From the NCBI GenBank assembly GCA_000004695.1, contig CH709177.1, positions 1-2,149 on the forward strand: a DNA stretch of 2,149 nucleotides, given 5' to 3'. This DNA comes from Dictyostelium discoideum (taxonomy: Eukaryota). The notes under the pieces are model-generated. The model was not told where the DNA came from. It was given only the letters and a program-made list of their open reading frames with translations, and ran no database searches. The position numbers and the translations under genes were made by a program. This document shows, piece after piece, positions 1 through 2,149 of this stretch. Position 1 is the first letter of the stretch, and every line of letters begins with the position of its first letter.

Positions 1-227
<227 letters not shown>

Positions 228-244
<17 letters not shown>

Positions 245-925
245 ATTGGAAGAGGAGAGAAAACAAGAACAAAAGAAAAAGAAAGAATTGGATGATCAAG
301 AATGGAAGAGAAAGGAACAACAATATCAATCTGATCTTCAATTGGAAAAAGAGAAACAATCTGCATTAGAGTTGGAACGTGAACGTGAAATTCAATCAAT
401 TCTTGAATCAGAGAAACAACGTCAACAACAAGTTGAACTTGAAATTCAACAAGAAAAAGAAAGAACCAAACAATTACAACAACAATGGGAACAAGAGAAA
501 TTGAAATTGGAAGAGGAAAGAAAAGGATTGGAAAATAAAAAATCATTGGAAATGGCTCAAAAGAAACAAGAACTATTAGAGTTAAATAAAAAGATTGAAC
601 AAGAACAACGTGATCTAGAAGAACGTATTCAAAAAGAACAAAAAGAAAAAGATCAAAGAGAAAAGCAAGATCAATTGGCTCAAATGGAATTAGAAAGAGA
701 AAGAGAAAGAGAAAAAGAAGAAAAAAAGAGAAAACAACAACAATTGGCTCAATTAGAAAAAGAAGAAAGAGAAAGAAATGAAAAACTTGAAAAAGATAGA
801 CAATTACAATTAGAACAAGAAATTGAAAAAGAAAGAAAATTAAAACAACAACAAAAAGAAAAAGAACAAAAAGAACAAAAAGAAAAAAGAGAACAAAGAG
901 AAAAAGAAGAACAAAAATCAAAAGA
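228..925 (+). repeat. Tandem direct repeat copy 1 of a ~700-bp coiled-coil module. Its partner is 1209..1906 (period 981 bp).
   Basis: By-eye alignment shows 698 bp identical except 527 g / 1508 a and 665 g / 1646 a. The two copies are separated by a 283-bp segment (926..1208) that contains the junction motifs, the (AAT)n tract and the N-rich/acidic segment. Confidence 0.9.
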
Positions 926-965
926 AATGTTTGTTGATCAATTGGAACACCAAATAAAAATGTAA
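234..965 (+). CDS. Coiled-coil E/K/Q/R-rich repeat protein ORF (tandem copy 1). It has no ATG start: the frame opens directly after the TGA at 210..212, and the track's start at 234 is a TTG. Possibly a headless or pseudogenised copy, or part of a larger frame-shifted gene.
   Basis: ORF-track frame is open 213..962 with stop TAA at 963..965. The translation is a long low-complexity coiled-coil: LEEERKQEQKKKKELDDQEW...LEREREREKEEKKRKQQQLAQLEKEERERNEKLEKDRQLQLEQEIEKERKLKQQQKEKEQKEQKEKREQREKEEQKSKE, then MFVDQLEHQ from a second copy of the unit-start motif, then IKM*. Codon usage is typical of AT-rich amoebozoan genes. Internal ATGs are only at ~551 and ~683. Confidence 0.5.
905..953 (+). repeat. 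Junction element J (unit-end aaagaagaacaaaaatcaaaagaa + unit-start aatgtttgttgatcaattggaacaccaa), occurrence 1. Occurrence 2 is at 1172..1226 with 4 extra nt (gata). Inverted partial copies lie at 2..21 (unit-end) and 198..225 (unit-start).
   Basis: Exact shared strings were found by inspection: 24 nt unit-end and 28 nt unit-start in both direct occurrences, and 20 nt plus 27 nt in the inverted occurrences that flank the kinase fragment. Confidence 0.85.
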
Positions 966-975
966 AGAATAATAA

Positions 976-1006
<31 letters not shown>

Positions 1007-1210
1007 GGAAATAATAATACTACTTTAATAAATACTGAAAATAATAATAATATAACTAAATTTGATGACGACTCAGAAAAAGAATCTGAAGAAGAACCAA
1101 AGCCAATTATCATAAAAGAAGAACCAAAAATAGTTTCAGTTAAAGTTGAATCCAAAAAGGTCGTCGTTAAAGAAGAAGAACAAAAATCAAAAGAAGATAA
1201 TGTTTGTTGA
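938..1210 (+). CDS. Asn-rich / acidic coding-like segment in frame +2 (no ATG). Possibly a linker exon of a larger repeat protein whose reading frame is broken at both flanking junctions.
   Basis: Frame 2 reads SIGTPNKNVKNNKYNNNNNNNNNGNNNTTLINTENNNNITKFDDDSEKESEEEPKPIIIKEEPKIVSVKVESKKVVVKEEEQKSKEDNVC and stops at TGA 1208..1210. Segment 1061..1199 is less AT-rich and looks like coding sequence. The other two frames are full of stops here. The segment is bounded by unit-start motif 926..953 and unit-end motif 1172..1195. Confidence 0.3.
978..1006 (+). repeat. (ATA/AAT)n trinucleotide microsatellite, ~9.7 units. A shorter (AAT)4 lies at ~1040..1051. In frame 2 it encodes poly-Asn.
   Basis: ataataataataataataataataataat is read directly from the sequence. 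Poly-Asn tracts of this kind are characteristic of dictyostelid coding regions (established knowledge). Confidence 0.9.
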
Positions 1211-1940
1211 TCAATTGGAACACCAATTGGAAGAGGAGAGAAAACAAGAACAAAAGAAAAAGAAAGAATTGGATGATCAAGAATGGAAGAGAAAGGAACA
1301 ACAATATCAATCTGATCTTCAATTGGAAAAAGAGAAACAATCTGCATTAGAGTTGGAACGTGAACGTGAAATTCAATCAATTCTTGAATCAGAGAAACAA
1401 CGTCAACAACAAGTTGAACTTGAAATTCAACAAGAAAAAGAAAGAACCAAACAATTACAACAACAATGGGAACAAGAGAAATTGAAATTGGAAGAGGAAA
1501 GAAAAGAATTGGAAAATAAAAAATCATTGGAAATGGCTCAAAAGAAACAAGAACTATTAGAGTTAAATAAAAAGATTGAACAAGAACAACGTGATCTAGA
1601 AGAACGTATTCAAAAAGAACAAAAAGAAAAAGATCAAAGAGAAAAACAAGATCAATTGGCTCAAATGGAATTAGAAAGAGAAAGAGAAAGAGAAAAAGAA
1701 GAAAAAAAGAGAAAACAACAACAATTGGCTCAATTAGAAAAAGAAGAAAGAGAAAGAAATGAAAAACTTGAAAAAGATAGACAATTACAATTAGAACAAG
1801 AAATTGAAAAAGAAAGAAAATTAAAACAACAACAAAAAGAAAAAGAACAAAAAGAACAAAAAGAAAAAAGAGAACAAAGAGAAAAAGAAGAACAAAAATC
1901 AAAAGAGAAAAACAAGATCAATTGGCTCAAATGGAATTAG
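1200..1940 (+). CDS. Coiled-coil E/K/Q/R-rich repeat protein (tandem copy 2), with the ATG at 1200 lying inside the unit-start motif ([15 protein letters not shown]...). The ORF track begins it at TTG 1146.
   Basis: Frame 0 is open 1146..1937 with stop TAG 1938..1940. The first in-frame ATG is at 1200..1202 in an A-rich context (aagataATGttt). The protein is identical to copy 1 except G->E at one position (527 g vs 1508 a). The C-terminus KNKINWLKWN* results from an out-of-frame junction into the third partial repeat at ~1906. Confidence 0.5.
   Translation: MFVDQLEHQLEEERKQEQKKKKELDDQEWKRKEQQYQSDLQLEKEKQSALELEREREIQSILESEKQRQQQVELEIQQEKERTKQLQQQWEQEKLKLEEERKELENKKSLEMAQKKQELLELNKKIEQEQRDLEERIQKEQKEKDQREKQDQLAQMELEREREREKEEKKRKQQQLAQLEKEERERNEKLEKDRQLQLEQEIEKERKLKQQQKEKEQKEQKEKREQREKEEQKSKEKNKINWLKWN
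1209..1906 (+). repeat. Tandem direct repeat copy 2 of the coiled-coil module.
   Basis: See copy 1. The offset of 981 bp is a multiple of 3, so both copies are in the same reading frame. Confidence 0.9.
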
Positions 1941-2149
1941 AAAGAGAAAGAGAAAGAGAAAAAGAAGAAAAAAAGAGAAAACAACAACAATTGGCTCAAT
2001 TAGAAAAAGAAGAAAGAGAAAGAAATGAAAAACTTGAAAAAGATAGACAATTACAATTAGAACAAGAAATTGAAAAAGAAAGAAAATTAAAACAACAACA
2101 AAAAGAAAAAGAACAAAAAGAACAAAAAGAAAAAAGAGAACAAAGAGAA
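1808..2149 (+). CDS. Frame +2 open reading frame that continues the coiled-coil repeat (third, partial copy) to the window end. It is 3'-partial and the first ATG is at 1931.
   Basis: The last frame-2 stop is TGA 1805..1807. From 1904 the frame reads REKQDQLAQMELEREREREKEEKKRKQQQLAQLEKEERERNEKLEKDRQLQLEQEIEKERKLKQQQKEKEQKEQKEKREQRE, identical to copy-2 residues, because 1902..2149 duplicates 1636..1883 with a 266-bp (= 2 mod 3) offset. Confidence 0.3.
1902..2149 (+). repeat. Nested partial third copy. It duplicates 1636..1883 (and therefore 656..903) at an offset of 266 bp and runs off the window.
   Basis: The sequence from aaagagaaaaacaagatcaattggctcaaatgg to the end matches 1636..1883 base for base. 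The junction lies at ...aatcaaaaga|gaaaaacaag, and the internal site is preceded by the near-identical gatcaaaga (microhomology). Confidence 0.85.

Follow-up and report, generated by a model that had tools for sequence, protein, structure and literature searches.

False junctions in sequence records are known to arise from template switching, from ligation and from fold-back reads (bioRxiv 10.64898/2026.06.24.734375; PMC2927423), and the artefacts known as nanopore follow-on reads as a rule retain some 35 nt of adapter between the joined parts (bioRxiv 10.64898/2026.06.24.734375). Capture of gene fragments via template switching is documented in other eukaryotes (PMC8277862).

The window analysed here is a stretch of 2149 nt of Dictyostelium discoideum DNA, both ends of which lie inside repeats. 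Our preferred reading, to which we give about even odds, is that it represents a mosaic, in which a coil repeat is joined to pieces of unrelated genes, and that it is more likely a technical chimera than a stable chromosomal locus. A preliminary description of the window had reported intact modules with a frameshift at each junction, a pattern that, at face value, could easily be taken for recoding or a new repeat protein. The junction elements are, as described below, recombination seams that are common to an inverted kinase fragment, and the pattern is therefore without translational meaning.

Coil, linker and kinase modules

The features of the window are listed in Table 1. The coil unit comprises 708 nt (236 codons), beginning with ATGTTTGTTGATCAATTGGAACACCA (element B) and ending with GAAGAACAAAAATCAAAAGA(A) (element A), and its frame is continuous across the head-to-tail joint. 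Element A represents the last 20 nt of the unit and element B the first 27–28 nt. Copy 1 lacks an ATG because the fold-back replaces its first 8 bases. Comparison of 227–925 with 1208–1906 revealed differences at only 2 of 699 positions, one of which replaces Gly by Glu (526 G/A) and one of which is synonymous (665 G/A), and all 21 of the A/T runs of at least 5 nt common to the two 699-nt copies (about 109 nt) are equal in length. The two substitutions suggest at least two distinct copies, in a genome that should be haploid, an observation that speaks against a technical origin. The third, partial copy is identical to 1636–1883 and is joined at a 5-nt microhomology, AAAGA (1902–1906). Exact internal repeats of 299, 260 and 248 nt were found in the window.

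The composition of the coil unit is 27% Glu, 20% Gln and 18% Lys, and one continuous α-helix was predicted for residues 2–234 by AlphaFold2 from the single sequence (mean pLDDT 90.9). Long charged helices rich in E, K, R and Q are common in dictyostelid proteins. No Pfam family was found for the unit and no homologue was detectable in 5.8 billion protein clusters, and it is therefore not assigned to a named family.

Table 1. Features of the 2149-nt window
Feature	Position	Strand	Description
Element A, inverted copy	2..21	−	gaagaacaaaaatcaaaaga; last 20 nt of the coil unit, adjoining the 3′ end of the kinase piece
NDR-family kinase gene fragment (D. discoideum)	22..208	−	187 nt; kinase subdomains VIII–X only
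Element B, inverted copy	198..225	−	taatgtttgttgatcaattggaacacca; first 27 nt of the coil unit
Fold-back joint	198..244		18-nt arms (198–215/227–244), 11-nt loop
Coil copy 1	227..925	+	Frame 0; 699 nt; without the first 8 nt, including the ATG
Native-looking in-frame head-to-tail coil joint (A + a + B′)	906..953	+	...EEQKSKE/MFVDQLEHQ
Linker L	954..1172	+	Frame 2; 219-nt coding sequence of foreign origin, first Asn-rich, then acidic/Lys-rich
Last 23 nt of the coil unit (including A), resuming past the linker	1173..1195	+	904–926 = 1173–1195
4-nt GATA insertion	1196..1199	+	Not present in the in-frame unit joint; from J1 versus J2
Coil copy 2, complete	1200..1906	+	MFVDQLEHQ...EEQKSKE
Coil copy 3, partial (unit positions 437–684)	1902..2149	+	266-bp duplication shifting the frame; TRF period 266

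Both the coil and the linker show dictyostelid codon usage. The coil, the linker and the ORFs derived from the window were absent from every protein and contig collection searched, and the coil and linker were also absent from the annotated D. discoideum proteomes. These searches comprised viral, metagenome and genome pattern scans, exact ORF look-ups, megablast against plasmids and phages, the NDR locus with 10 kb on either side, and fetched proteins and loci; an identical coil would give an E value of 1e–100. Exact look-ups of six ORF variants from the window returned none on record. The linker matched neither the coil unit nor the NDR locus, and no homologue or parent gene was found for it in the protein collections searched. 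No native source of either coil or linker came to light in these searches, so that the assignment of backbone and insert, including that of the linker as the substitute for the interior of one coil unit, draws on internal logic only. The coil unit (a 236-residue helix) and the Asn-rich/acidic piece may derive from a gene that is either unannotated or specific to one strain.

The left end of the window contains a piece of a D. discoideum NDR-family kinase gene, on the minus strand. The preliminary description had missed this fragment (in 1–212), as well as the inverted junction elements (2–21 and 198–225) that bracket it. The piece matches the native gene (L002) exactly over 23–194 and 196–208, with a single mismatch at 195. 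Overall, 3–208 is 97% identical to the kinase gene, and the identity ends abruptly on both sides. The encoded peptide, of about 62 codons, is the same as in D. discoideum and D. purpureum proteins, being identical to P0242 and P0245 over GTPDY..TLPKI, and ends with NWKQTLPKI. It was recognized by Pfam Pkinase (E=3e–16) and by STK38 (6bxi; E=1e–28), with only positions 158–222 of the 263 in the Pkinase profile present. The full set of a complete catalytic domain (subdomains I–XI, with VAIK, HRD and DFG), activation-segment Ser and hydrophobic motif is not found in the fragment, which is not a functional NDR/LATS protein kinase gene.

The intact parent gene, to which the description of a short Ndr type applies (PMC4120859), was found at L001/L002 and specifies a full 542-aa product (P0242, 'ACTFIW_007816'). 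The piece in the window corresponds to the central part of that gene's last exon, is truncated on both sides and is disabled; it is thus a gene fragment or pseudogene piece. Because the piece contains no intron, DNA and mRNA origins are indistinguishable. The flanks of the piece in the native gene are ...GCATATTCAAATG/TTGGAACACCAGAT and CCAAAAATCATGGAAGAAGCAAAAGC, neither of which is B or A. Upstream, NVC*SI, with an in-frame TGA, is found in place of RRVLAYSNV; downstream, the gene is left after TLPKI (native ..MEEAKAEV) and the frame is lost. The divergence, 1 mismatch in 186 nt, is at the level between two D. discoideum isolates, and the absence of decay indicates an event that was either very recent or in vitro. 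Neither coil nor linker was found within 10 kb on either side of the native NDR locus.

Some other relationships to the kinase gene were considered. The possibility that linker, B and kinase piece together represent a natural insert in the activation loop of an NDR kinase was rejected after comparison with the sequence of the native gene and with dictyostelid orthologues. The N-terminal 'REEQKS' region of the native gene matches A over 15 nt, which was judged to be due to chance in A-rich coding DNA (about 3 expected, by our own estimate), and a 12-nt match of 215–226 to the forward strand of the kinase gene was not significant.

Joints and reading frames

It is apparent that elements A and B bound the coil, linker and kinase bodies alike, one set being inverted. 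The copy of A at 2–21 is an exact inverted repeat of 906–925, 1175–1194 and 1887–1906, and the inverted copy of B overlaps the kinase piece by an 11-nt microhomology, TTGGAACACCA (198–208). Two further microhomologies are of 6 nt (GAAGAA, plus a 1-nt loss) and 5 nt (AAAGA). With the parent known, the overlap of the kinase piece is seen to be 11 nt for B and about 6 nt for A. Small fillers, GATA and C, are also present at the joints. Both foreign pieces replace a unit interior between nearly identical boundaries. Independent random switches would be expected to give a less regular pattern, and this is an observation against the reading preferred here.

The fold-back at 198–244 (ΔG −28 kcal/mol; z=−7; 0 of 200 shuffles) marks the point at which the orientation changes, with the inverted kinase unit on one side and coil copy 1 on the other. 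No adapter-like insertion was seen there, an observation against a nanopore follow-on artefact. The inverted repeats of the window consist of the A and B copies plus low-complexity A/T-rich matches only. Neither terminal inverted repeats nor target-site duplications were seen in the window, which may be too short for element ends, and Rfam, tRNA and tandem-repeat scans of the window revealed nothing further than the repeats already listed.

Translation confirmed the preliminary description in that the frame is broken at all three junctions (J1–J3) while the module bodies are open. At J1, where the A5 run is located at 956–960 as had been reported, frame 0 runs into a stop codon (TAA, 963–965). 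In frame 2, an open run of 90 codons (938–1207) lies between the TGA codons at 935–937 and 1208–1210; the Asn-rich stretch is open in this frame only, together with the acidic part, and the other frames hold 6 and 26 stops in the linker region. J2 has, as also described previously, four extra bases in comparison with the in-frame joint at J1 (caaaagaa/atg). The GATA puts the linker frame onto the TGA at 1208–1210, and the ATG of MFVDQ in the next unit (1200–1202) stays in frame 0. The offset at J3 is, as had been stated, 266 (2 mod 3), with frame 0 ending in KNKINWLKWN* (TAG, 1938–1940) and frame 2 free of stops for the remainder of the window. The shifts needed at J1, J2 and J3 are −1, +1 and −1, respectively, and are thus mixed in direction.

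Stop-free sequences were obtained in none of 3000 dinucleotide shuffles for the coil unit, none of 3000 for the linker and 17 of 3000 for the kinase piece; the three bodies are true coding sequence. Under random joining, the probability that all joints would be out of frame is 0.30 for three joints and 0.13 for five, and the finding that every joint is out of frame is unsurprising by itself.

Origin of the frame breaks

In the reading preferred here, the backbone would be a tandem in-frame coil repeat, with a 708-nt unit, from a D. discoideum-type genome. Two units would have had their interiors swapped for a piece of another gene, only the first ~27 nt and the last 20–23 nt being kept. One of these, at the left end of the window, would have received 187 nt of the last exon of the NDR-family kinase gene, taken from its central part and in inverted orientation, and the other 219 nt of Asn-rich/acidic coding sequence in a different frame; in a third event, 266 bp of coil would have been duplicated. 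The microhomology, fillers and fold-back resemble the signature of template switching, by a polymerase or a reverse transcriptase, and the switch point at the unit start appears to lie inside a small CAATTGG/CCAATTG hairpin that could stall synthesis. The parentage of the kinase piece, the anatomy of the joints and the frames are demonstrated here; we infer both this mechanism and a technical origin, the source of which might be a library, clone or long-read artefact, or a junk contig. The sequence is clean and devoid of homopolymer noise, and it is therefore not a raw noisy read, an observation that counts against a technical origin. Because joints made by template switching ignore the reading frame, frame breaks with intact bodies would be mere seams. 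There is no translation across the seams and, unless reads show the contrary, the record is best regarded as chimeric or rearranged.

The preliminary description listed several explanations and favoured none. Those in which the frame breaks have a translational or sequencing cause fare poorly. It is very improbable that three single-base homopolymer errors have broken what is really one repeat protein of over 600 aa, with the order coil, linker, coil and coil. The arithmetic of that proposal, made in the preliminary description, stands, in that each break is repairable by a single run length (A5 at 956–960, T3 at 1203–1205 and A4 at 1902–1905), but homopolymer error is rejected as the cause: all 21 runs are equal between the copies, J2 is a 4-nt insertion and so differs from an in-frame joint by 4 nt and not by 1, J3 is a 266-bp duplication at 5 nt with similar strings in different codon phases, and the kinase/A joint departs from the native gene by more than 1 base. 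The inverted kinase fragment bounded by the same elements would be left unexplained, and the first coil copy has no start codon. The earlier suggestion of a decaying pseudogene array comes nearest, since at its joints the array does not function; the module bodies are pristine, however, so that the cause would be patching with foreign fragments rather than decay. Separate small genes, each extending from the ATG in B to just past the next junction, had also been suggested and are likewise very improbable. Copy 2 would specify 246 aa from the ATG at 1200 to the stop at 1938–1940, and the TGA of the linker frame overlaps the ATG region of that copy. However, the ATG is present in copy 2 only and not in copy 1, the linker frame has no ATG, GTG or TTG, AT-rich intergenic spacers are absent between the modules, each 'gene' would finish in a few junk codons of the next module, and none of the six ORF variants is on record as a product. 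A non-standard code, with TGA or TAA reassigned, was rejected: the frame-0 stops in 963–1200 are all TAA or TAG, but in the coil all 46 Gln are encoded by CAA and all Trp by TGG, and a ciliate-type code is therefore unsupported. Concealment of the breaks by spliceosomal introns was also rejected, as no GT...AG pair restores the frame across J1 or removes the TGA in B. The least credible of the earlier proposals, with a probability close to nil, is programmed ribosomal frameshifting or other recoding that reads through the junctions to give one long protein. Open frames do abut at each junction, and the stop codon at J2 is situated at a would-be +1 site (UGU UGA U, 1205–1211), which we take to resemble antizyme/RF2 sites superficially. 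The sequences at J1 (A_AAA_AUG, 956–962) and J3 (A_AAA_GAG, 1901–1907), however, do not represent slippery heptamers (X_XXY_YYZ), and A-site re-pairing is impossible at both. Downstream structure is lacking as well: in comparison with shuffles, no stable stem-loop or pseudoknot of the kind required 5–9 nt downstream of a −1 frameshift site was found at J1 (951–1050; MFE 0 kcal/mol, z=+1.48) or J3 (1895–1994; MFE −2.6 kcal/mol, z=+0.23), and the 100 nt downstream of J2 fold no better than shuffles (z=−0.95). There is no common frameshift signal, because the required shifts differ in direction. Moreover, the junction elements are recombination joints common to an inverted fragment of an unrelated gene, and no homologues were found that would show conservation.

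The same mosaic may instead have formed in vivo, a possibility that we regard as doubtful but well ahead of those just described. It would then represent a rearrangement, specific to the strain, of a chromosomal coil-repeat gene: replication or repair mediated by microhomology (MMBIR/FoSTeS or a polymerase-theta-type templated insertion) would have taken up pieces of the NDR gene and of a second gene and left a recent, non-functional, pseudogene-like array. The 5–11 nt of microhomology, small fillers, inverted segment and duplication fit such repair, the two substitutions fit distinct genomic copies, the sequence is clean at the consensus level, and the eukaryotic precedents cited above are in accord. 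Against this are the presence of at least 5 abnormal joints within 2.1 kb, none of the pieces showing decay, the absence of coil and linker from the annotated D. discoideum proteomes and all contig collections searched, and a record that is short and repeat-ended and in which mobile-element terminal inverted repeats or target-site duplications were not seen. If the joints are chromosomal, the window would be a compact case of microhomology-mediated patchwork repair in Dictyostelium. A more specific version, which we consider improbable, is that of a real chromosomal locus in some D. discoideum isolate, with the coil repeat as an acceptor array that captures gene fragments: synthesis would stall at the CAATTGG/CCAATTG hairpin, switch by microhomology to the DNA or RNA of another gene, and return at the A-rich unit end. 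This would fit the near-identical boundaries of the kinase and linker replacements better than random chimerism, and if true it would be a natural mechanism of gene-fragment capture or exon shuffling caught in action. An in-silico misassembly, in which a short-read de Bruijn walk passed through short shared k-mers, is far less probable than either. The lengths of A (20 nt) and B (28 nt) equal k−1 for k=21 and 29, which are values from assembler defaults; two pairs of B contexts have exactly 28 nt in common, A and the kinase end have 20 nt in common, and the window starts one base beyond A. This coincidence was dropped once the true parent showed overlaps of 6–11 nt: the overlaps with the parent (11 and ~6 nt) and that at J3 (5 nt) are far below a usable k, and so fall short of the k−1 expected of such joints, and the long exact repeats are incompatible with a simple path at k≤141. 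Together, the 299-, 260- and 248-nt repeats and the 5–11-nt joints indicate that there is no simple short-read de Bruijn path and that the joints were therefore present on real molecules.

Comparison with known systems

The window shares with programmed frameshift sites (−1 heptamer plus structure; +1 antizyme/RF2) the overlapping open frames and the J2 stop at the shift position, but differs from them in the absence of a heptamer, of structure and, in the collections searched, of homologues that would show conservation, and in the inconsistent direction of the shifts. The coil is similar to charged E/K/R/Q-rich long helices (coiled-coil or single α-helix) in composition and predicted helix. 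With regard to the D. discoideum NDR-family (NDR/LATS, AGC) kinase, 23–208 of the window is its DNA, with one mismatch; in contrast to the native gene, the piece is partial, inverted relative to the coil and away from the native locus. The combination of terminal inverted repeats and a target-site duplication that characterizes Pack-type transposon capture was not found in the window, and in this respect it differs from Pack-TIR capture (PMC8277862). It is like MMBIR/FoSTeS and Pack-TIR type capture in its close breakpoints, microhomology, small fillers (templated or untemplated in such events), inverted segments and internal gene fragments. In comparison with library and sequencing chimeras ('RT-facts', PCR chimeras, and fold-back and follow-on reads), the window differs in a fold-back without an adapter-like insertion and in two inserts at nearly the same boundaries, but is alike in its joints at short direct repeats or microhomology, its duplications and deletions between similar strings, its fold-back inversion and the presence of unrelated loci on one molecule.

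Reading frames across the window

The window is AT-rich, with codon usage of the dictyostelid type. Translation bore out the three frame breaks that the preliminary description had placed at the module junctions J1 (953-962), J2 (1193-1202) and J3 (approximately 1906). At J1, frame 0 ends at the TAA at 963-965, and frame 2 runs open over 938-1207, as far as the TGA at 1208-1210. The coil copy that follows J2 has its ATG at 1200-1202. At J3, a partial third copy begins at 1902, at a 266 bp offset; frame 0 stops at the TAG at 1938-1940 and frame 2 stays open to the window end. The coil unit, the Asn-rich/acidic linker and the kinase piece all code beyond chance: stop-free dinucleotide shuffles numbered 0/3000 for each of the first two and 17/3000 for the kinase piece. 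Frame-blind joining of coding pieces would place three joints all out of frame with P = 0.30, so that every junction breaks the frame is unremarkable. The preliminary description of the modules, accurate as to these breaks, missed a kinase gene fragment (minus strand, 1-212) bracketed by inverted copies of elements A and B, the end and start of the coil unit.

Coil units and their joints

Each base was assigned either to the NDR kinase gene or to a tandem coil unit in idealised form; the main features are tabulated here.

Features of the window
Feature	Position	Description
Element A	906-925, 1175-1194, 1887-1906; inverted 2-21	gaagaacaaaaatcaaaaga; repeat comparison
Element B	925-952, 1198-1225; inverted 198-225	taatgtttgttgatcaattggaacacca; repeat comparison
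8-bp hairpin	1211-1230, also 230-249	TCAATTGG-AACA-CCAATTGG; start of every coil unit; two CAATTG palindromes
Linker, 219 nt, frame 2	leaves coil at 953/954	after 27 nt of next unit; foreign coding, Asn-rich then acidic/Lys-rich
Return to coil	1173-1195	last 23 nt of a unit
GATA insertion, 4 nt	1196-1199	precedes complete unit
Complete coil unit	1200-1906	downstream of GATA insertion
Coil copy difference 1	526 vs 1507	G/A, Gly to Glu (RKGLENK vs RKELENK)
Coil copy difference 2	665 vs 1646	G/A, synonymous

The stretch 906-953 (A, 'a' and B') is an in-frame head-to-tail joint (...EEQKSKE/...) of the 708-nt (236-codon) unit. Of the 699 bases in coil copies 227-925 and 1208-1906, all but 2 agree; copy 3 matches copy 2 throughout and carries its allele at the single difference site that falls within it. 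The unit is predicted to form a single long helix (pLDDT 91), and no Pfam family was found for it. Its last third (655-925, 1636-1906 and 1902-2149) is internally repetitive, with TRF periods of 9, 18, 27, 36 and 69 nt; each of these is divisible by 3, which suggests that in-frame micro-duplications enlarged the unit. Antisense to the coil runs the longest ORF of the window (223-1902, minus strand; 559 aa, MIFVLLFLFVLFF...). It is a mechanical by-product and not a gene, because the complement of the purine-rich sense strand has few A or G and hence few stop codons, but it would mislead a prokaryotic gene caller.

A and B are present at every coil junction and, inverted, on both sides of the kinase piece. 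B includes an 8-nt palindrome, TTGATCAA, and the change of orientation is marked by an 18-nt fold-back (198-215/227-244; dG -28 kcal/mol, z = -7). The kinase 'unit' is laid out as the linker unit is: the unit's first 27 nt, 176 foreign nt and the unit's last 20 nt. Both foreign pieces join exactly within the 8-bp CAATTGG/CCAATTG hairpin, after ...GGAACACCA. J3 is a 266-bp duplication with its joint at AAAGA; the strings confused there, aaaaaTCAAAAGAG and aaagaTCAAAGAG, differ in codon phase.

Source of the kinase piece

Minus strand 1-212 codes for a Pkinase C-lobe of NDR/STK38/Cbk1 type. An exhaustive HMMER search gave a dictyostelid relative at 86% (P0096, Synstelium polycarpum), and named dictyostelid orthologues were retrieved with a full-length relative as query. 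The GTPDY...TLPKI of the window is identical in D. discoideum (P0242) and D. purpureum (P0245); in DNA alignment, 3-208 is 97% identical to the D. discoideum gene versus 85% for D. purpureum. Blocks 23-194 and 196-208 match the D. discoideum gene exactly, and the fragment as a whole diverges from that gene as little as two D. discoideum isolates do from one another. The match breaks off abruptly at either end, where the native gene reads ...GCATATTCAAATG/TTGGAACACCAGAT (RRVLAYSNVGTPDY) upstream and CCAAAAATCATGGAAGAAGCAAAAGCAGAAG (PKIMEEAKAEV) downstream. B shares only TTGGAACACCA (11 nt) with the kinase gene, and A only GAAGAA (6 nt), next to which 1 nt has been lost. The piece sits midway along the last exon of the native gene (7716-8528 of locus L002), and therefore its ends are not exon boundaries; neither coil nor linker was found within 10 kb on either side of the native locus. 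The abrupt ends, the 6-11-nt overlaps, the mid-exon position and the lack of coil or linker nearby show that the window is not the NDR locus, and that it contains a 187-nt internal fragment of the gene joined at microhomologies to other sequence.

The P0096 model (EukProt) jumps from ...KSKMIEKHQ directly to RRVLAYSNVGTPDY, so that most of the catalytic core is missing, and is probably mis-spliced or mis-assembled in the public set. Fifteen nt of A (GAAGAACAAAAATCA, coding REEQKS) recur in the N-terminal region of the native gene (L002 6461-6475; L001 6483-6497), 1.4 kb upstream of the captured piece; in coding DNA so rich in A this was judged to be coincidence, approximately 3 such matches being expected by our estimate. 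The NDR gene spans 2571 nt in L001 and 2531 nt in L002, the loci of the two isolates, and the product of a neighbouring gene is 1055 and 1030 aa long, respectively, which shows ordinary repeat-length polymorphism.

Origin of the junctions

Several readings of the frame breaks fail. Homopolymer sequencing error is contradicted by the 21/21 long runs of equal length in the coil copies, and leaves the 4-nt difference at J2 and the kinase fragment unexplained. Separate small genes, also proposed earlier, find no support: just one module has an ATG, the linker frame lacks a start codon and there are no intergenic spacers. Recoding would require shifts of -1, +1 and -1; the junctions have no slippery heptamer, no structure lies downstream of them (fold z = +1.5, -0.95 and +0.2) and no conservation can be invoked. 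Short-read k-mer misassembly is suggested by the lengths that A and B have in common between contexts, precisely 20 and 28 nt, but this coincidence loses its force against overlaps of only 6-11 nt with the true parent; nor do the exact repeats of 299, 260 and 248 nt within the window fit a simple de Bruijn path. Neither alternative genetic codes nor hidden introns account for the breaks.

The frame-break observation is correct, yet it is not a functional feature: the breaks are the seams of a patchwork of D. discoideum-type coil repeat, NDR kinase gene fragment and one more coding fragment. A single molecule that combines pieces of unrelated genes with 5-11-nt microhomologies, 1-4-nt fillers or losses, a fold-back and a local duplication has the pattern of template switching by a polymerase or reverse transcriptase, which is proposed to have built the mosaic. 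The hairpin at the unit start would be a plausible stall site for the switch, and such joints ignore reading frame, which accounts for pristine bodies with broken junctions.

The same mosaic could have arisen by rearrangement in vivo, at a real locus. The coil copies differ by two substitutions, the sequence is clean, the fold-back contains no adapter and the boundaries of the two replacements are strikingly alike; even so, we regard a real locus as rather unlikely. No piece shows decay, the kinase fragment included; at least five abnormal joints fall within 2.1 kb of a short, repeat-ended record; and the window sequences, the orphan coil and linker among them, were absent from every collection searched, although a coil identical to this one would have been returned at E = 1e-100. 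These points favour a chimeric molecule of technical origin, to which we give about an even chance. False junctions have been documented to arise from template switching, from ligation and from fold-back reads (bioRxiv 10.64898/2026.06.24.734375; PMC2927423).
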